From NCBI GenBank assembly GCA_008932965.1, contig WBXG01000040.1, positions 1 to 14,553 on the forward strand: a stretch of DNA of 14,553 bases. The letters run 5' to 3'. How positions within the stretch are numbered: position 1 is the stretch's first letter; every line of letters begins with the position of its first letter. Shown piece by piece: positions 1 to 12,444 of the stretch. The notes below the pieces were generated by a model, which was not told the DNA's origin, made no database searches, and saw only the letters and a list, made by a program, of their open reading frames with translations. The translations under genes were made by a program, and so were the position numbers. This stretch comes from Verrucomicrobiota bacterium (lineage in GTDB: Bacteria; Verrucomicrobiota; Verrucomicrobiia; Chthoniobacterales; UBA6821).

Positions 1-266
1 CCCGGATATTTCATACCAATCACCTGCGGAGGTCGATAAGCCAGCTGGATGCTGCGTTGAGCTCGAAGTCATCCTCGGGCAGTAGGGACTCATACAGCCC
101 TGCATCAAAATATGTTTCTGCGTTGACTCGCTCGCTCCCGCTCGTCTCGCCCTTTCAGGGCTGCCTAAAGGAAGTCTCTGGCAGTCCCCTCGCGGTCTTC
201 CGACCTCCGGTGGTTCCCCATCAGCCTTTGCAGCCTCCTCGTCACGATTAGTATGAAATATCTGGG
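1..266 (+). mobile_element. MITE-like palindromic element, copy A (long, composite variant; its 5' end coincides with the window edge)
   Basis: The 5' end cccggatatttcatacc (1-17) is the inverted complement of the 3' end gtatgaaatatctggg (251-266). Positions 1-105 align with the 5' arms of copies B-E. The centre gtagggactcatacagccc matches copy C, and the last ~50 nt (ccatcagcctttgcagcctcctcgtcacgattagtatgaaatat) match copies B and D. It carries ~85 nt of extra internal sequence. CTAG follows at 267-270. Confidence 0.85.
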
Positions 267-421: not shown

Positions 422-2416
<1,995 letters not shown>

Positions 2417-2533: not shown

Positions 2534-2709
2534 CCCAGATGTTTGATACCGATCACCTGCGGAAGCCGGGAAGTTAGATGGATGCTGCGTTGATCTCGAA
2601 GTCTTCCTCGGGCAGTGTGTATACACACTGCCGTCGTCAGACTTCATCGCTCGCCTTGTCCCATCTGCCTTCGCGGCCTCCTCGTCACGATCAGTATGAA
2701 ATATGCAGG
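2534..2709 (+). mobile_element. MITE-like palindromic element, copy B (subfamily I)
   Basis: The 5' end is cccagatgtttgatacc and the 3' end is gtatgaaatatgcagg. A central perfect 22-nt palindrome ggcagtgtgtatacacactgcc (2611-2632) is extended by gaagtct/agacttc pairing. The copy is about three-quarters identical to copy D by eye. Flanks are TGAG (2530-2533) on the left and CTAG (2710-2713) on the right. Confidence 0.9.
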
Positions 2710-3777
2710 CTAGGTGTTCTGAAGGGTCGCCATATCAATGACAAAGCGGTAATGCACATCACTTCGAATCATGCGCTCAAAAGCGTTATTAATCTCTTCT
2801 ATCGAGATAAGTTCAATATCAGCTGTGATGTTATGCTCTCCACAAAAATCGAGCATCTCCTGAGTTTCTTTGATTCCGCCTATGAGTGAACCCGCAACTG
2901 TTTTGCGTCCTCGGATCAAATCAAACAACATGAATTCTATCGGTTTGCTTGGAGCTCCTACAATAGCCATCTTCCCATCACGTTTAAGTAAGTTTAAGTA
3001 GTGACTGATGTTATAGGGTGCTGAGATGGTATTTAAAATAAAATCAAAACTCTCCAGATGTTTCTTCATCGATTCCTCATCGGTAGAAACAACAATATCT
3101 TCTGCACCCAATTGAAGTGCATCAATTTTTTTATCAGGGGAGGTAGTAATGGCAAAGGTCTTGGCACCCAAGGCGTGAGCAAATTTAATGGCCATGTGTC
3201 CTAATCCTCCAATTCCAATAACAGCTACTTTTTGACCAGCTCTCACATTCCAATGACGCAGCGGAGAATAGGTTGTAATTCCAGCGCAAAGTAAAGGTGC
3301 TAGAGCAGCAAGAGGTAAATGTTTTGGAAGGCGTAAGACAAAATCTTCCTGGACGACGATGTGCTCAGAATATCCACCATAGGTCGGGGTTTTTTTATCT
3401 TGCTCGGTTCCATTGTAAGTGGAGGAGAATCCTTGTTCACAAAATTGTTCCAATCCCTCTTTGCAAGAACCACAGCTCCTACAAGAGTCGACCATGACAC
3501 CAACTCCTACCACATCCCCTAGCTGAAATTTTGTAACATGAGTTCCCACTCCCTTGACATGTCCTACAATTTCATGACCTGGAACAATGGGATAAGTACT
3601 ACCGCTCCACTCATTGCGAGCCTGATGAATATCGGAATGACAAACACCGCAATAATCGATACTAATGGCCACATCATGAGGTTCGAGAGAGCGCCGTTCT
3701 AATGAATACGGAACAAGAGGTGTTTTGGCACTTAAAGCAGCATAGGCTTTGGTAATGGAAAATGGTTTTTGGTTCAT
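2710..3777 (-). CDS. Zinc-dependent NAD(P)-alcohol dehydrogenase (MDR superfamily, cinnamyl-alcohol/YahK-like)
   Basis: Motifs present are the catalytic Zn site CGVCHSD, GHEIVGHV, the structural Zn site CRSCGSCKEGLEQFC and the Rossmann motif GIGGLGH. I moved the start to ATG 3775-3777 (MNQKPFSITKAY...). The 36 extra N-terminal codons of the track ORF (to 3885) look non-homologous and would overlap the divergent gene. Confidence 0.9.
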   Translation of the reverse strand: MNQKPFSITKAYAALSAKTPLVPYSLERRSLEPHDVAISIDYCGVCHSDIHQARNEWSGSTYPIVPGHEIVGHVKGVGTHVTKFQLGDVVGVGVMVDSCRSCGSCKEGLEQFCEQGFSSTYNGTEQDKKTPTYGGYSEHIVVQEDFVLRLPKHLPLAALAPLLCAGITTYSPLRHWNVRAGQKVAVIGIGGLGHMAIKFAHALGAKTFAITTSPDKKIDALQLGAEDIVVSTDEESMKKHLESFDFILNTISAPYNISHYLNLLKRDGKMAIVGAPSKPIEFMLFDLIRGRKTVAGSLIGGIKETQEMLDFCGEHNITADIELISIEEINNAFERMIRSDVHYRFVIDMATLQNT

Positions 3778-3833
3778 AATTTCTCGACATTTTGAGTGAT
3801 CATGAATAAGTTGAAAATACTTTTTTTGTAAAT

Positions 3834-5948
3834 ATGAGCACTCCTTTTGTAACAGGTCACAATATTGCTGCAACGAGCGACACAAATCAGGATATCTCCA
3901 GAGGTTCAGAGTCTTCTGATCAACATGTTCAGTTTGGCTCTACATTAATGAGTAAGACATCATCAACTCCAGCTTTAGACGAGCATGAGCGTAGGAGTAA
4001 GTTTCCAATCGAGAGTAGAAGCAATCTTACTCCTCAGCTCGTTTTAAATAGGGCTTTTTCTGATAATAGGGTAAAGGAGATTGTTGGAAGCTACTGCAAA
4101 AGGATTACCGAAATTGAAGAAGAAAAAAATGCACAATTAACTTCTTCTCAATCATTATTACATTCCAAACAATCCCATGCTTTAAGAAGAGGTTATGCAG
4201 CTGCCGTCAATGCTGATTGGGGAAATCAGTCAGAAACAGAAATAAGGGAAATTAAAAAAGTGGCAGCTAGTAAAAGATGTGTCACCACAGTGCAACTCAC
4301 TAAAAATCTTTTGCCTTATCAAAAAGAAGCTTTTCTAACCTTCCTTGATCAACGCTCTCAACAAATAGAAAATGATCCTGTTGCCTATGAGGATTCAACT
4401 CTCCAACAAGAGAAGAGCGAAGAAATACGCGCCTCTATTGAAAAAGTTTTTGCTATCAAAGAATCTCTTTTTTCTAAATCTCATACAGAAATTGAGAGTA
4501 CTGAAAAAGCAGATCTTCAAGCTTCTCTAGAAATTTCTGCAATTGCAGATGCTCTGTGTATGAGTCTCCTTAATGAGGATGCAGATAGTTATATTGAACA
4601 GGCTCGGGGGTCATTAAAAGAAGTGGATAACAGGGTCAATCTTACGGCTTCATGGTCTCAAGAAAATCGATTTTCTATTTCTGTATGGGGTACCCGATTC
4701 AAAGATGCTCTTGCTAAGCATCAAGCAGAACTGAAGCTTGCAGAGACACTCTCTCCCGAGACAGCGACATCGGTTGTTAAGGAAATCGTCGTTAATCTAG
4801 AGAAAGAAATGCTGGGGTTACGAGCTGCTATCACAGAATGTGATGTATCATTAAAGTTAGCAAAGCTTGAAGATCAGACCGCACTTAACCTCAATGCTCT
4901 CGGTCTTCAACAACTTCTCTCTGCAGCAAAATCTGCTGAAGCTATCTACAGTCGAATGGCAGAGGAGTATGAGGTTAAATTAAAAAACAGCCCTCAATTA
5001 CGAGCGGAACTTCTAAAGCTTTCCTCCTCCATTGCGAGGGATGATTCAGCGGAGACACCCCAAAAAACTCTTCTTGCGAGTCTTTTATCATCCCTGCCTC
5101 TAGCTCAGGTAACAGAATCATCTAAAAAATCAGACGAAATTTCCTTTTTATCTCAGCTTGATCTGCAACCAGAAGAAAAACTTGGTTATTTTGTCATTGG
5201 CACTCAAGAAAAAATAAAACTTACTCCACCTTCAGAATCGATTTCTGATGAGGATAGAGGACATTTTACTCAGGGGATACATCTTATCGAATTAGCACTT
5301 TTTAGAAATTTTGGAATGGAAGGAGTGAGGAATTTTAAAATGAAGTTTCATGATGCTATTCAAGCCGCAAGCCCCATAACGCTCAGCAAGCTGCAAGATT
5401 TTGTAAAATCCGAAAATAAAAGTAACAGCAATAGCTTTTATCTCTCGACTCAACATGGTTGGAGTGAGCTCCAAAATCAATGGGAAGATCCTACCAATAA
5501 TGGCCGAGTGATTCAATCTGAGGGAGTGTCATTTAATCCCTTTTCAAAAGAATTAGAATCAATAACAAAAACCCGAAATCAAGAGCAATCCATTCAAGAA
5601 GGAATCCAAGTCACACGAAAAGTTCTAGAGGATCATTTAGAAGAGCTCGCACCTCAGGTAAAGAGTGAAATACTAAATCGCTTTGACCAAAGATTTGTCA
5701 AAAATAAAATGTCACTAACCTTAGGAAGCCTTAAATCGCTTCTTCAAGAAAGTGAGCCGCAAGGTTATTTTAATTTATCAAAGGCCATTATTAACAATTT
5801 AAAATGGAATTTATTGAAAGCTTCTGTCGGTGCTATACAAAACACAGCATGGTTTTTAGGCTCAGGACCATTACCAGCTTTTGCATTAGAGTTTGCGATG
5901 GAGTTTTATGGGGACCTCACTATTAGAGAGAGAACGCTGGACCATTAG
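3834..5948 (+). CDS. Hypothetical 704-aa protein (ORFan) with a Ser/Thr/Gln-rich N-terminus, a long helical/coiled-coil-like middle and a hydrophobic C-terminal segment
   Basis: An uninterrupted 2.1-kb ORF in AT-rich sequence is very unlikely to be chance. I recognise no family motif. The start is uncertain: an alternative Met lies at codon 39 (MSKTSS), and only 56 bp separate the ORF from the divergent ADH start. Confidence 0.7.
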   Translation: MSTPFVTGHNIAATSDTNQDISRGSESSDQHVQFGSTLMSKTSSTPALDEHERRSKFPIESRSNLTPQLVLNRAFSDNRVKEIVGSYCKRITEIEEEKNAQLTSSQSLLHSKQSHALRRGYAAAVNADWGNQSETEIREIKKVAASKRCVTTVQLTKNLLPYQKEAFLTFLDQRSQQIENDPVAYEDSTLQQEKSEEIRASIEKVFAIKESLFSKSHTEIESTEKADLQASLEISAIADALCMSLLNEDADSYIEQARGSLKEVDNRVNLTASWSQENRFSISVWGTRFKDALAKHQAELKLAETLSPETATSVVKEIVVNLEKEMLGLRAAITECDVSLKLAKLEDQTALNLNALGLQQLLSAAKSAEAIYSRMAEEYEVKLKNSPQLRAELLKLSSSIARDDSAETPQKTLLASLLSSLPLAQVTESSKKSDEISFLSQLDLQPEEKLGYFVIGTQEKIKLTPPSESISDEDRGHFTQGIHLIELALFRNFGMEGVRNFKMKFHDAIQAASPITLSKLQDFVKSENKSNSNSFYLSTQHGWSELQNQWEDPTNNGRVIQSEGVSFNPFSKELESITKTRNQEQSIQEGIQVTRKVLEDHLEELAPQVKSEILNRFDQRFVKNKMSLTLGSLKSLLQESEPQGYFNLSKAIINNLKWNLLKASVGAIQNTAWFLGSGPLPAFALEFAMEFYGDLTIRERTLDH

Positions 5949-6113
5949 CACGAATGTTTCATACGGATTGAAACGAGGGAACGACCAAGACACGGTGCGA
6001 TTGGCTGACTGAGATACTCCTATCAAGGCTTATATGAGGGCTGTGTGAAGCCAACATGATGTCTGAGTTGTACCCCAGCTAACTCAAAACCTGAAAAAAG
6101 TGTGATGTAGAAA

Positions 6114-8416: not shown

Positions 8417-8599
8417 CTCGGATATTTCACACTAAATCACTTACGGCTTGTGGAAAGCGTATCATTACTGCGTTGGTCTCGAATTGTGATTGGGGGGTGC
8501 GGTAGGGACTCATACAGCCCGGCATCCCAATCCTTCGCCCGCCTTGTACTAATGAGCTTAGCACGGCGCCTCATGACATATCAGTATAAAATATCCGGG
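8417..8599 (+). mobile_element. MITE-like palindromic element, copy C (subfamily II)
   Basis: The 5' end is ctcggatatttcacac and the 3' end is gtataaaatatccggg. TTAA flanks both sides (8413-8416 and 8600-8603). The 63-nt block 8511-8573 is 61/63 identical to copy E. The element lies 21 nt upstream of the uppP start codon, in the uppP/nnr divergent region. Confidence 0.9.
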
Positions 8600-8799: not shown

Positions 8800-10326
8800 A
8801 TGATTCTTACTGTTTCCCAAATGCAGGAGGTAGAGCGCGAAGCTTTCCAACGAGGTGTTGAACCCGCGATTCTTATGGAGGAAGCAGGGGAGGGAATTGC
8901 ACGTATTGTTCAGCAATTTTTTCCAGTGCCAGGAGTTGCCGTTGCCTATTGTGGTAAAGGAAATAATGCAGGGGATGCTCTTGTTGCTGCTCGTATGTTA
9001 GCCCATGAGGGTTGGAAAATTGGGGTACGACTGACCTTTCCCAAAAATGAAATGGCACTGCTCTCGAGGGCCCATCTTCAAGAGCTCGAGGAACATGATG
9101 GAGTCTCTATTTTGGAAAAAATACCTAAGGAGACTTCAGGCACTCTTGTTCTTTTAGATGGCCTTCTAGGGATCGGTGCTTCAGGAAATCCACGTGATTC
9201 TCTGAAAGATGCGATTGAAGAAATAAATTTTTTACGGTCCCATCATAGTGCCTTTGTTGTGGCTATTGATCTTCCTTCTGGGCTAGATGGTACTACTGGG
9301 AAGCCGTTTCCATGCTGTGTGGAGGCTGATTTAACCGCAACGATTGCTTTTGCTAAAGAAGGACTTGTCGCTGATACCGCTACGAACGTGGTGGGTAGAA
9401 TTGCCGTGGTTCCCCTATCCGGGTTAACCCGTATATTTCATACTCATCACCTGCAGAAGCCCGGGAGCCGTAGGGAAGGTGCGTCATTGATTCTCCCAGA
9501 GGCTTTGAGAAAGGTGCTTCCGAAACGTGCATTCGATGTTCATAAGGGTCTTTTTGGTCATGTAGGAATTCTTGCTGGCTCACCAGGCTTTCTAGGAGCA
9601 GCACGCCTTGCCTCTGCTGCTGCCCTTCGTGCCGGGGCAGGTCTTGTTACCCTTTATGCATTGCCCGAAACCTATGACATGCTTGCGGTCTCGACCTCTC
9701 CAGAAGTGATGGTCAAACCAATTAAAAATTATCTCGATCTTTTTGAAGAGCCTTTGGATGCTCTTGGGATTGGCCCTGGGCTTGGTTCTAAATATTCTCA
9801 TGAAATTGGTGAGATTATTGAAAAATTACCAATACCCTCTGTTATTGATGCCGATGCTCTTAATGCTTTGGTTCAAGAAAAATTACGATTATTAAAGTGT
9901 CACTATCCTCGCCTTCTCACCCCTCATCCAGGCGAGATGGAACGACTCTTTTCCGCAGAGGGTCGCTCACGTTCCGCATGGGCAAAGGATTTTGTCGATC
10001 ACTATCGTGTGACGCTGCTTCTTAAAGGGGCCCGTACTCTGATCGCTGAATATGCTCAGCCTCTTCTCTTCAATACGACTGGCAACCCTGGCATGGGAAG
10101 TGGTGGCATGGGGGATGTTTTAACAGGAGTTACTACTGCATTTTTAGCATCAGGTCATTCTTGTCGGAATGCAGCTCAGCTTGGAGCTTGGCTCTGCGGC
10201 AGAAGCGCAGAAATTGCAGTTTATGATTCGGGGAACTCCCCTGAATCTTTGGTTTCCAGCGATGTGATCGCCCATCTCGGGATGGCTTTTCACTCGATGA
10301 GGGTTGGTGAGTTCAGGGCTAACTAG
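8800..10326 (+). CDS. nnr: Bifunctional NAD(P)H-hydrate repair enzyme Nnr (N-terminal NAD(P)HX epimerase plus C-terminal ADP-dependent dehydratase; YjeF family)
   Basis: The N-domain shows CGKGNNAGDALVAAR. The C-domain shows HKG..G.V.ILAGS.GF.GAA.LA..AALRAGAGLV, LTPHPGE, KGA.T and GNPGM.SGGMGDVLTG. I chose ATG 8800 (MILTVSQMQEVE) as the start. The track ORF begins at a TTG at 8725, which adds 25 non-homologous residues. Confidence 0.92.
   Translation: MILTVSQMQEVEREAFQRGVEPAILMEEAGEGIARIVQQFFPVPGVAVAYCGKGNNAGDALVAARMLAHEGWKIGVRLTFPKNEMALLSRAHLQELEEHDGVSILEKIPKETSGTLVLLDGLLGIGASGNPRDSLKDAIEEINFLRSHHSAFVVAIDLPSGLDGTTGKPFPCCVEADLTATIAFAKEGLVADTATNVVGRIAVVPLSGLTRIFHTHHLQKPGSRREGASLILPEALRKVLPKRAFDVHKGLFGHVGILAGSPGFLGAARLASAAALRAGAGLVTLYALPETYDMLAVSTSPEVMVKPIKNYLDLFEEPLDALGIGPGLGSKYSHEIGEIIEKLPIPSVIDADALNALVQEKLRLLKCHYPRLLTPHPGEMERLFSAEGRSRSAWAKDFVDHYRVTLLLKGARTLIAEYAQPLLFNTTGNPGMGSGGMGDVLTGVTTAFLASGHSCRNAAQLGAWLCGRSAEIAVYDSGNSPESLVSSDVIAHLGMAFHSMRVGEFRAN
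9416..9500 (+). repeat. Fragment of the MITE-like element embedded in frame in the nnr interdomain linker
   Basis: The segment 9428-9467, cccgtatatttcatactcatcacctgcagaagcccgggag, aligns with the copy B 5' arm cccagatgtttgataccgatcacctgcggaagccgggaag. Weaker similarity continues to about 9500. It is preceded by TTAA (9424-9427) and by tatccggg (9416-9423), which equals the element's 3' terminus. The segment is translated as GLTRIFHTHHLQKPGSRREG. Confidence 0.65.
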
Positions 10327-10504
10327 CCCCTATATTTCATATCAATCTACTGCGGAGTTCGGGAAGCAAGGGTGGATGTTTCGCCCAAGCTCGAAGTCTT
10401 CCTCGGGCAGTATGTACTCATACAGCCGTCGCAAGACTTCATCGCTCCCCTTACCCCATCAGCCTTCGCGGCCTCCTCGTCACGGTCAGTATAAAATATC
10501 CGGG
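10327..10504 (+). mobile_element. MITE-like palindromic element, copy D (subfamily I)
   Basis: The 5' end is cccctatatttcatatc and the 3' end is gtataaaatatccggg. CTAG flanks both sides (10323-10326 and 10505-10508), and the left CTAG contains the nnr TAG stop codon. The central hairpin is ggcagtatgtactcatacagcc (10406-10427). Confidence 0.9.
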
Positions 10505-10570
10505 CTAGCTATTTTTTTTTAAAAAGACATTGCGAATTGAGGTCTTGATCGCTACAAATGACCTCCTCTT

Positions 10571-10641
10571 TGTCCTGTGGTGTAATGGTAACACAGTGCC
10601 CTTTGGAGGCATTATTCATGGTTCGAGTCCATGCGGGACAG
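10571..10641 (+). tRNA. tRNA-Gln (anticodon UUG)
   Basis: A manual cloverleaf fits. The acceptor stem is TGTCCTG/CGGGACA with discriminator G. The D arm is GTGT-AATGGTA-ACAC. The anticodon arm is GTGCC-CTTTGGA-GGCAT, with U33 and anticodon TTG. The variable loop is TATT and the T arm is CATGG-TTCGAGT-CCATG. CCA is not encoded. Confidence 0.93.
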
Positions 10642-10857
10642 TGTTTTTAGAAAGTCACTTGAATCGTTTCACAAGAATATTTCCTAGTCAGTTCAGTCGT
10701 ACGATCCCACTGAGTATCTCCTTTAGGAATAGGATGGAGTCTCCGCTTGTTCATCCATTGTGCATGAGCATATTCTTTATTGTGCTTGGGAGGCTCACAA
10801 TTTTTTTCTGAGGTGAACCTCGATTTATAATTTACAAACTATTGCTGTCGCTTCCTG

Positions 10858-12192
10858 ATGCAACTTTCAGCCGGACTCTCTCAACAACAATTTCTCTCTG
10901 TGCAGATGCAGCAAGGTCTCGAGCTTTTACAGGCTCCTGCAATGGAGCTCCGGGGTTTGATTGCTGCTGAACTTGTCGCTAATCCAGTGTTAGAGGAGGA
11001 ATTTTTTTTAGAACCGACTGTTTCAGAGAAAAATGAGACTGCTGCTTCTAATGAAGAACTCTCTTGGAGAGAATCAGAGGCACGAGGAAATCAGGATGAG
11101 CAACGGCAGCGATTTCTAGAATCACGTCCCTCTAACACAACACTTGCCGAGACGATTGAGGCTCAAACAGCATCATTCCTAGCGGAAGATCAACCCATCA
11201 TTCAAGCGATCGCTGGTAATTTGGATGCATGGGGATATTTGCGGGTCAGTTGTGCAGAGATCGCTGTATCATTGAGTCTCTCAGAGCAACACGTCGAAGA
11301 GGTTTTAGAAAAGATTCAACTACTCGATCCTCCTGGGGTAGCTGCGCGTGATCTTAAAGAATGTCTTTTAATTCAATTGCGCCATCAAGGACGCGAGAAT
11401 GGCTTGGCTAGCAGGATTGTAAGTCATTATCTACCGCAACTCGCACGGCACCATTATGAGGAAATTGCTAAAAATCTGCGCCTTCCTCTCTCCGAGGTTC
11501 TCAAAGAAGTAGCCATTATTACTGCATTAGAGCCACATCCAGGCCGTCCATACATAAAATCTGAGGAACAGACTGTGATTCCAGATTTGATTGTGATGGA
11601 GGAGGAGGGGGTATTTTTAGTCCGTTTTAATGAGGAAGGGCAGCCTCGAATGAAGATTAGTGATTATTATAAAGAGATGTTGTCATCGCAATCGGAGAAT
11701 CAAGAGCTGCGTCACTACCTGCAGGAAAAAATTCGGCTTGGAAAATCTTTTATTCATCATGTGGAGCAACGTCAATCTACCCTAATGGCTGTGGGACGTG
11801 ACATTGTTCGTCGACAAGAAGATTTTTTTAAATATGGAACCTACGGCCTCCATCCCATGACCATGGCGCAAGTTGCCCAAACCCTCGGAGTGCATGTGAC
11901 CACTATCAGCCGTGCTGTTGCAGGAAAGACGATGGATACTCCACGAGGTCTGTATTCATTAAAATATTTTTTTACTGCAGGTATTGAGCAAGAAAATGGG
12001 GCTCATGTCAGCAATGAGATGGTCAAGTCGTCATTAAAAAAAATGATTCAAGAGGAGCAAAAACAGAAACCTTGGAGTGATCAGAAAATTGTAGCTCGTT
12101 TTCAAGAGCTGGGGATTCATATAGCCCGCCGTACTATTGCCCATTACCGAGAGCAGCTTGGGATATTACCAGCGCATTTAAGAAAAAAATAG
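10858..12192 (+). CDS. rpoN: RNA polymerase sigma-54 factor RpoN
   Basis: Region I is Gln/Leu-rich (LSQQQFLSVQMQQGLELLQAPAMEL). An acidic region II follows. The C-terminus has the HTH (MTMAQVAQTLGVHVTTISRAV) and the RpoN box ARRTIAHYRE. Confidence 0.96.
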   Translation: MQLSAGLSQQQFLSVQMQQGLELLQAPAMELRGLIAAELVANPVLEEEFFLEPTVSEKNETAASNEELSWRESEARGNQDEQRQRFLESRPSNTTLAETIEAQTASFLAEDQPIIQAIAGNLDAWGYLRVSCAEIAVSLSLSEQHVEEVLEKIQLLDPPGVAARDLKECLLIQLRHQGRENGLASRIVSHYLPQLARHHYEEIAKNLRLPLSEVLKEVAIITALEPHPGRPYIKSEEQTVIPDLIVMEEEGVFLVRFNEEGQPRMKISDYYKEMLSSQSENQELRHYLQEKIRLGKSFIHHVEQRQSTLMAVGRDIVRRQEDFFKYGTYGLHPMTMAQVAQTLGVHVTTISRAVAGKTMDTPRGLYSLKYFFTAGIEQENGAHVSNEMVKSSLKKMIQEEQKQKPWSDQKIVARFQELGIHIARRTIAHYREQLGILPAHLRKK

Positions 12193-12266: not shown

Positions 12267-12444
12267 CCCGCATATTTCATACCGATTCTGCTGCGGCTTG
12301 CGAACACCTGATGGATACTGCGTCAGTCTCGAATTGCTCCTCGGACAGTATGAAACATACAGCCCGGCATCCCAATCCTTCGCCCGCCTTGTACTAGTGA
12401 GCTTAGCACGCCGCCTCAGGACACTTCATGATGAAATATCCGTG
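12267..12444 (+). mobile_element. MITE-like palindromic element, copy E (subfamily II)
   Basis: The 5' end is cccgcatatttcatacc and the 3' end is catgatgaaatatccgtg. The flanks are TTAA (12263-12266) on the left and TCAA (12445-12448) on the right. The block 12356-12418 is 61/63 identical to copy C. The element ends 19 nt before the SulP start codon. Confidence 0.9.

Follow-up and report, generated by a model that had tools for sequence, protein, structure and literature searches.

Rickettsia palindromic elements (RPEs) are, as described by Ogata et al. (2000, 2002) and summarised in PMC10969869, short (~100-200 bp) palindromes over their whole length, many of which lie in frame in unrelated housekeeping genes; at a permissive position, the host protein then contains a peptide that is typical of the family. 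MITEs, short for miniature inverted-repeat transposable elements, residing in frame in bacterial genes are also on record, namely the QMITEs of Coxiella, intragenic ERIC sequences and the MITEs of Anabaena (PMC5896051, PMC10969869). A further point of reference is the IS1380 family, whose transposases are distant prokaryotic relatives of the piggyBac transposases (PMC10140906); piggyBac duplicates TTAA and has CCC...GGG ends (PMC7351741). Here we analyse a stretch of 14,553 nucleotides (the window) from contig WBXG01000040.1 of a Verrucomicrobiota bacterium (Chthoniobacterales), in which nnr, the gene for a bifunctional NAD(P)H-hydrate epimerase/dehydratase, carries between its two domains a segment that is probably the decayed remnant of a MITE, five further copies of which lie elsewhere in the window.

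A repeat remnant in the interdomain linker of Nnr

The nnr segment and the copies of the repeat are located as follows.

8800-10326, plus strand: nnr coding sequence, 508 aa from the ATG of database protein P0001
9416-9423, plus strand: TATCCGGG, the same as the commonest 3' terminus of the repeat, encoding part of L-S-G
9424-9427, plus strand: TTAA, the insertion target; TTA is a Leu codon, the same codon as in the insert-free sister species
9428-9484, plus strand: 5'-arm relic of the MITE, model positions 1 to ~57, in the stop-free frame of the family and read as TRIFHTHHLQKPGSRREGA
1-266, plus strand: copy A, a 266-nt size variant; the window begins at its first base and CTAG follows at 267-270
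2534-2709, plus strand: copy B, 176 nt, flanks TGAG/CTAG, a single long hairpin
8417-8599, plus strand: copy C, 183 nt, flanks TTAA/TTAA
10327-10504, plus strand: copy D, 178 nt, flanks CTAG/CTAG
12267-12444, plus strand: copy E, 178 nt, flanks TTAA/TCAA

A preliminary description of this DNA, made from its letters, had reported a fragment of the intergenic repeat within nnr, and what it said about the sequence of positions 9416-9500 proved accurate at the coordinates given. The homology to the 5' arm of the intergenic copies, quoted there over 40 nt, in fact spans 57 nt: 9428-9484 groups with four other 5' arms of the repeat and is 72% identical to copy A over this length. An nhmmer profile built from five intergenic copies matched 9428-9486 at model positions 1-59 with 18.1 bits (E 3e-5 in 160 kb), and the segment scored 17.2 bits when set against shuffled controls, a comparison which the preliminary description had named as a way to refute the homology; the highest value among 2000 shuffled versions was 2.9 bits. 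Relative to its subfamily consensus the relic retains 72% identity, compared with a median of 89% for intact copies.

Immediately upstream of the TTAA, the 8-mer TATCCGGG (9416-9423) matches copies C and D in 8/8 positions of their 3' termini; its equality with the 3' terminus of the element had been stated before. It is the commonest 3' terminus in the whole family (36/74 copies) and is found four times in the window against 0.17 occurrences expected, the remaining three being element termini. The 20-bp palindrome with one mismatched pair, reported earlier at 9416-9435, is present as TATCCGGG TTAA CCCGTATA. Neither the relic nor this palindrome folds differently from shuffled sequences at the RNA level (z +1.1 and -1.1, respectively), so that there is no case for an mRNA structure.

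At the protein level, residues 207-228 of the 508 in Nnr read ..PLSG LTRIFHTHHLQKPGSRREGA SLI.., and the linker peptide is LTRIFHTHHLQKPGSR. The segment indeed lies between the epimerase and the dehydratase, as the Pfam domains YjeF_N (23-188) and Carb_kinase (255-477) correspond to the epimerase and the carbohydrate-kinase-like dehydratase in the layout of a bifunctional Nnr (YjeF); residues 8-477 align to PDB entry 2AX3 (TM0922) with an E value of 4e-55.

Lineage specificity and predicted structure of the insert

We aligned Nnr with 20 orthologues from other species, none of which has the relic segment; the lineage-specific insertion suspected from the sequence is thus borne out. The linker is 11 residues shorter in 17/20 orthologues, and the other three carry unrelated insertions at the same point, which indicates that the site is permissive. 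The closest orthologue belongs to a sister species (locus L001; 84% amino acid and 81% nucleotide identity) and reads GTGGTTCCCCTTTCAAAATTAAAAACATCCCAGGATCAGTCATCATCATTGATTC, where the window reads GTGGTTCCCCTATCCGGGTTAA followed by 56 nt and TCATTGATTC; at the insertion site itself, CCCCTTTCAAAATTAAAAACATCC...TCATTGATTC in the sister species faces CCCCTATCCGGGTTAA, the 56 nt and TCATTGATTC in the window. Because the insert-free sister species has TTAA at the same codon, the TTAA is ancestral and represents the target. In the window, 23 nt of linker are replaced by 56-57 nt of element, a net gain of 33 nt or 11 residues, which is the exact excess over the closest orthologues; the earlier estimate of roughly 10-18 residues had been made relative to E. 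coli YjeF. In addition, the 8 nt upstream of the TTAA have been changed in register, from TTTCAAAA in the sister species to TATCCGGG in the window.

A second strain allele, represented by 15 contigs from several independent assemblies, differs at 10 other positions of nnr but has exactly the same insert, which can thus not be an assembly artefact. An element peptide occurs in none of the 120 best Nnr homologues outside the window species. In an AlphaFold model of Nnr based on 48 aligned sequences (mean predicted local distance difference test score, pLDDT, 90.2; predicted template modelling score 0.89), low pLDDT values are confined to the insert blocks at 211-230 (56 and 67), the downstream linker block at 241-250 (59) and the last eight residues. 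The reading frame of nnr is intact, and the model places the insert in a low-pLDDT loop between two confidently predicted domains.

Unrelated insertions of ~50-70 residues were noticed in the Nnr of other Chthoniobacterales (P0016, P0025, P0028, P0031); they follow the FFP motif, fall within the epimerase domain or occupy the same interdomain linker. These may be in-frame insertions of other repeat families.

The 3' end of nnr also bears the mark of the repeat. The stop codon TAG lies inside the upstream CTAG flank of copy D (10318-10330; 10327-10508), and the C-terminus ..GEFRAN extends 3 residues beyond all 20 orthologues from other species, R-A-N and the stop being contributed by copy D. 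About 100 nt of intergenic DNA of the sister species, including the original stop, are absent beside copy D in the window.

The repeat is a MITE with a 4-bp target duplication

The distribution of the repeat was explored by scanning one genome per species for the pattern YTAR + CCCNNATATTTCATAC. The matches listed for this pattern came mostly from metagenome-assembled genomes (MAGs) of Verrucomicrobia, among them Kiruna_bin-02438, Tobar2m-G38, Deming_bin.170, SMAG_U8253 and AS27yjCOA_75; the Chthoniobacterales MAG Tobar2m-G38 is the GTDB representative of the window species. In ~0.8 Mb of retrieved loci the profile detected 108 full-length copies, 74 of them non-redundant, with a modal length of 176 nt and size variants near 128 and 257-293 nt. 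A 16-bp terminal inverted repeat (TIR) with the ends CCCGGATATTTCATAC / GTATGAAATATCCGGG was seen on the window copies and on the 74 non-redundant copies. The flanks were TTAA (32), CTAG (15), CTAA (10) and TTAG (3), and 36/74 copies had identical flanks on both sides (TTAA 23, CTAG 9, CTAA 4). Identical flanks, including CTAA/CTAA four times, point to a 4-bp YTAR duplication; a TA duplication of the IS630/mariner type was rejected, since CTAA/CTAA occurred four times and a CTAA/TTAG pair never.

Copy B folds into one long hairpin (-74.4 kcal/mol, z -5.3) and is thus a palindrome over its whole length. No transposase gene is contained in the copies, whose sole open reading frames (ORFs) are read-through frames. 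Filled and empty sites were found between relatives at fmt and at an ORF for a TamB-like protein, which shows that the family is mobile; the search for empty sites among the retrieved loci yielded only two further usable pairs. With its TIR, target duplication, small size, high copy number and lack of a transposase, the repeat is a MITE, that is, a non-autonomous DNA transposon. In the literature searched, nothing specific on in-frame MITEs in Verrucomicrobia or Chthoniobacterales was found, and the family is apparently undescribed. A known structured RNA as an explanation of the element was ruled out by a scan of Rfam, which at gathering thresholds gave tRNA-Gln only and no match on any element at E values up to 1.

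Several further observations concern the copies. Copies A to E and the nnr relic share the plus-strand orientation regardless of how the adjacent genes are directed; in the corresponding locus of the sister species orientations are mixed. The ORF at 2578-2889 (+) begins within a repeat copy and that at 10530-10811 (+) overlaps the tRNA gene; both are read-through frames and not genes. At 5946-5978, just past the stop of a 704-aa ORF, TAGCACGAATGTTTCATACGGATTGAAACGAGG shows 76% complementarity with copy B in the 3' arm and went unreported by the profile; similar to a degenerate element end, it may be an old relic. In another locus of the window's species (L117, 2105-2190), 3' of a gene for a peptidoglycan-binding protein, CTAG is followed by a 57-nt 5'-arm relic that ends in ..GCGT|TAG and passes directly into a second 5' end (CCCGGATATTTCAC), which suggests insertion into an element-internal YTAR at about position 57, near the end point of the nnr relic. 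Two strains of the sister species (L001 and L002) are identical up to an element end (16937 onward) and then continue with penicillin-binding protein 2 and dehydroquinate (DHQ) synthase, respectively; in L002 a 128-nt short-form copy adjoins the first copy via CTAG. The repeats seem to mark rearrangement breakpoints here.

In-frame residence in conserved genes

Together with its duplication, the modal copy comprises 176 + 4 = 180 nt, or 60 codons, and the length plus 4 is a multiple of three in 41/74 copies. The frame set by TTA|A (or CTA|G) is free of stops in 28/74 copies in the forward and in 28/74 in the reverse direction (38%), compared with 5/74 and 0/74 for the +2 and -2 frames, which are not forced to hold TAA or TAG (Fisher 7e-6 and 3e-10). 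The peptide of the stop-free frame reads L-T/A-R-I-F-H-T ... Y-E-I-S-G-L. In the retrieved loci, full-length in-frame copies within long ORFs were all in the TTA|A phase, and include the following.

pheT: between tRNA_bind and B3_4
glnD: between HD and ACT
penicillin-binding protein 1A: after the transglycosylase domain
aroB (3-dehydroquinate synthase)
PMT-type glycosyltransferase
TMEM260-like protein
TamB-like ORF of the window's own species: an orthologue lacks exactly the 180 nt

The analogy to RPEs drawn in the preliminary description has thereby gained in substance, with full-length in-frame copies in at least eight other conserved genes and a frame that is open in both orientations. A 5'-arm relic in the same frame as that of nnr (LTRIYPTNHLRNPGSQMDAAL) was found in a sulfotransferase gene of the sister species. 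A phmmer search with the peptide of copy B against 1.84 billion representative proteins recovered 80 proteins, mostly short spurious ORFs; about 10 of the 80 exceed 240 aa, and three of those scanned contain host domains, namely those of a DHQ synthase, of DUF2071, here divided in two by the insert, and of a 5-formyltetrahydrofolate cyclo-ligase with an element-encoded N-terminus. A short ORF (L067, 2931-3385) runs in frame through a tandem pair of copies, and a long glnD ORF (L076) has, besides the internal element-encoded stretch, a second one near its N-terminal end.

A candidate autonomous parent of the IS1380 family

A MAG of the order Pedosphaerales contains an element of 1801 bp (L035, 4916-6716) with the same 16-bp TIR, CTAG/CTAG flanks and a DDE transposase, whose ORF may be truncated. 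The transposase matches the IS1380 model NF033539 with 244 bits (cut-off 180) and PF13701 with an E value of 3e-97. Judged by these shared ends, the family is most likely moved by an IS1380-family transposase. A second candidate for an autonomous element (L027, 5831-6917) was discarded, as it consists of a flavin reductase gene between two separate ends and has no transposase. The end motif with YTAR flanks was also seen at L012, L023, L040 and L082 (Pseudomonadales chromosome OZ241746.1), and the same motif in Planctomycetes, Omnitrophota, Magnetococcales and Treponema, in all cases with no match to the MITE profile. These occurrences outside Verrucomicrobia are probably other IS1380-type elements with conserved ends.

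Origin of the nnr segment

We regard the segment, with a probability of about 0.8, as the decayed remnant of a MITE that inserted at the linker TTAA of nnr after the split from the sister species. The insertion is at the ancestral TTAA within the linker codons and in the open phase of the family; the parent was probably of full or almost full length and would have added about 60 residues to Nnr, leaving the ORF uninterrupted. Survival of the gene would be accounted for by the 60-codon unit and by the TTA|A frame, usually stop-free in either orientation, as it is this phase that nnr uses. Later, an in-frame deletion of ~147 nt (for a parent of 176 nt) would have taken out 23 nt of the linker together with the second TTAA and the distal 120 nt of the element, so that 56-57 nt remain and the protein is, on balance, 11 residues longer; microhomology at the deletion junction is at most 1 nt. 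The identity of 72% to the consensus implies that the relic is old or drifting as linker sequence. It is now likely to be a passive, probably neutral extension of a flexible interdomain loop.

Several points weigh against this history or parts of it. Both the size of the parent and the single deletion of 147 nt are deduced from one sister sequence at 81% identity, and an intermediate nnr allele was not found among the 120 best Nnr homologues. With only 72% identity between relic and consensus, the history may have been more complex. The statistics on the stop-free frame count related copies and therefore overstate independence. Finally, the link to IS1380 consists of identical ends in a different verrucomicrobial order, and no transposase was found in the window species.

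The least certain step concerns the 8-mer upstream of the TTAA. Our favoured but tentative explanation, to which we give somewhat less than even odds, is that it was an end-like flank which predated the element and attracted its insertion; the transposase would then favour target flanks that resemble the transposon end. Of 207 element ends, eight continue for 13 nt or more past the duplication into a full or partial partner copy (tandem head-to-tail copies sharing 4 bp), and two further tandem junctions score 8-9 nt owing to mismatches. Four other ends, at nnr, L072, L097 and L081, extend just 8, 8, 8 and 10 nt, where ~0.14 such ends would be expected by chance. At the 3' end of fmt (L072) the sequence is TATCCGGG-CTAG-element, the 8-mer forming the last fmt codons (..GYPG) and the stop lying in CTAG. 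Two relatives have empty sites at this position, with TATCCGGG-CTAG in L114 and TATTCGGG-TTAG in L113, and synteny is conserved on both sides; the motif can therefore predate a resident element. For the 10-mer of L081, the relative L115 keeps ATATGTGGG-CTAG, after which neither the element nor syntenic sequence follows. The flanks of the 146 other ends weakly echo the element end, with C at +1 to +3 (0.27-0.32 vs 0.22) and T at +7 (0.40 vs 0.28). We also considered the end-mimic flank CCCGGATA beside YTAR targets in general; the resulting list of sites is swamped by ends of other families with the same TIR, and occupancy does not separate a target preference from relics made by the element itself.

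Against a pre-existing flank it can be held that the 8-mer of the sister species differs at 5/8 positions, including AAA (Lys) for GGG (Gly), and that an older relic might be present at the empty fmt sites, or these might stem from seamless excision. As the differences in the sister species comprise two synonymous third positions and three positions in one variable codon, they cannot decide the origin of the 8-mer. In an Fmt orthologue (P0127) the C-terminus ..GHGINPDISH resembles read-through into the 5' end of an element in another frame (TTAACCCGGATATTTCACAC -> NPDISH), and it may be that elements have inserted at the 3' end of fmt repeatedly, in several species.

The preliminary description had proposed two head-to-tail insertions or a rearranged copy as the origin of the palindrome, which is not established by our data given that the empty fmt sites carry the 8-mer and that the 8 nt in nnr were replaced in register. 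In its explicit form, two head-to-tail copies would have shared the TTAA, or a second copy would have inserted into the TTAA flanking the first, and deletions would have left the last 8 nt of the upstream and the first 57 nt of the downstream copy. Junctions of a 3' end, 4 bp and a 5' end do occur (L002, L041, L054, L067, L038, L001, L095), partial partners of 43 and 54 nt exist, and the 8-mer found in the sister species at this position is another one. However, two separate in-frame deletions would be needed, the upstream one of exactly 180 nt to replace 8 nt in register; remnants are 8-10 nt long at three other loci as well, which is not expected from random deletion end-points, and the 8-mer stands at empty fmt sites. 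We therefore consider a tandem origin possible but doubtful.

A palindrome arising from the chemistry of transposition or from replication appears less likely still. A piggyBac-type end hairpin with a 4-nt target loop might have been opened off-centre and filled in, or a template switch across the TTAA might have copied 8 nt. Along one strand the piggyBac intermediate has the order end-TTAA-end (PMC7351741), IS1380 transposases are related to those of piggyBac (PMC10140906), and our element shares the TTAA target and the CCC...GGG termini. The change in register and the recurrent length of 8-10 nt would suit either process, and T.TC is common to the old and the new flank, so that a template could switch back. 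However, for IS1380 elements hairpin intermediates are presumed by analogy, and the empty fmt sites would require seamless excision in addition. P-nucleotide tracts, moreover, are usually shorter than 8 nt, which counts against the hairpin. Mere chance is a poor candidate for the nnr 8-mer.

As regards the fate of the insert, it is very improbable that its peptide was recruited for a function, for example in tuning the spacing or the interaction of epimerase and dehydratase, rather than being passive. It is true that the insert is identical in both strain alleles compared, with the ORF intact, and that other lineages have unrelated insertions at the same linker (P0028, P0031). However, the two alleles are so similar that constraint is not measurable from them, the insert region has low pLDDT, drift has left the relic with 72% identity to the consensus, and length and sequence of the linker vary freely among orthologues.

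That the linker simply diverged and came to resemble the repeat by chance, be it as a whole or in the 8-mer alone, can be dismissed almost entirely: although the L-S-x-L context leaves just two third-codon positions and one variable codon, or about 1 in 1000 for the 8-mer, the 57-nt arm reaches 17-18 bits against at most 2.9 in 2000 shuffles, which refutes chance for the arm, TTAA coincides exactly with the element boundary and with the orthologous codon, and other in-frame copies use this frame and encode this peptide too.

Genomic setting of the window

The window has a GC content of 43.6% and is collinear with, and 99.3% identical to, a lake metagenome contig of GCA_029981555.1 (L004). Besides nnr and the repeat copies it contains the following features.

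422-2392, minus strand: thiC
2710-3885, minus strand: zinc alcohol dehydrogenase
stop just before 5946: 704-aa ORF of unknown function
in the window, all on the minus strand: rpsI, rplM, a DUF6941 gene and uppP
10570-10642: tRNA-Gln
10858-12192: rpoN
window end: SulP transporter, start only

Implications and comparison with known systems

The family might be a bacterial counterpart of RPEs of the IS1380/piggyBac type that is shaped for life inside genes, the 20-bp palindromes at nnr, fmt and two other loci recording how its transposase works. The 60-codon unit, the frame free of stops in both orientations and the TTA|A phase giving Leu are what suggests residence in genes; as a whole, the proposal is speculative and rather unlikely as it stands. 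If it were true, the palindromes would reflect either a preference for targets flanked by 8-bp end mimics or misprocessed hairpins with a 4-nt target loop, and would provide the first natural footprint evidence that the hairpin mechanism of piggyBac is shared by IS1380 transposases. In-frame "selfish DNA" in housekeeping genes, long deemed a peculiarity of Rickettsia, is here met in free-living freshwater Verrucomicrobia. As the family retains its transposon anatomy and has a likely IS1380 parent, the path from insertion via an apparently tolerated insert of 60 residues to a trimmed relic becomes traceable and testable. For annotation, the family is a source of spurious ORFs, of extended or shortened C-termini and of odd insertions in conserved MAG proteins. 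The palindromic junctions also offer a cheap handle on target choice and chemistry in a poorly studied transposase family that includes ISEcp1, which mobilises blaCTX-M resistance genes.

Among known systems, RPEs are similar in being palindromic over their whole length, in their recurrent in-frame insertion in unrelated conserved genes and in their family-typical peptide. They differ in their hosts, which are obligate intracellular Rickettsia and not free-living lake Verrucomicrobia of another phylum. The verrucomicrobial family has a 16-bp TIR, a 4-bp YTAR duplication and an autonomous insertion sequence (IS) with the same ends; to our knowledge, neither TIR nor target duplication nor autonomous IS has been defined for RPEs. 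The copy in nnr is, moreover, a truncated relic and not a full element. With different ends and a different phylum, no sequence kinship with RPE-1 to RPE-10 is to be expected, and the likeness would be one of function. The QMITEs of Coxiella, ERIC sequences and the Anabaena MITEs share occasional in-frame fusions, C-terminal extensions and element-supplied stop codons with the family; in contrast to these, its in-frame state looks systematic (a 60-codon unit with a frame open in both orientations), as in RPEs.

IS30 and IS911 target sequences that resemble transposon ends, and insertion beside a resident or mimic end leaves abutted ends a few bases apart. Abutted ends separated by a few bases are also what we see, although in IS30 and IS911 other transposase families are at work, and the preference is suggested here by 4/207 ends, a weak logo of the flanks and a single locus at which empty sites occur. 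To IS1380 elements such as ISEcp1 the family is tied by the identical 16-bp ends and CTAG flanks of the 1801-bp IS and by the 4-bp duplication; the elements in the window differ in having no transposase, and the autonomous copy comes from another order (the Pedosphaerales MAG). The IS1380 family accepts imperfect end-like sequences, as illustrated by the alternative right ends of ISEcp1, and we know of no description of in-frame residence in genes as a trait of IS1380 derivatives. With piggyBac, the family has in common TTAA as a 4-bp duplication and the CCC...GGG ends, and in form the palindrome of nnr corresponds to the hairpin intermediate of piggyBac (PMC7351741). The differences are a bacterial host and a less strict target, YTAR (TTAA, CTAG, CTAA); hairpin ends and seamless excision are hinted at only indirectly, by the palindromic junctions and the clean empty sites. 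In its behaviour the family thus resembles an RPE, while by descent it is a MITE, most likely from the IS1380 family.

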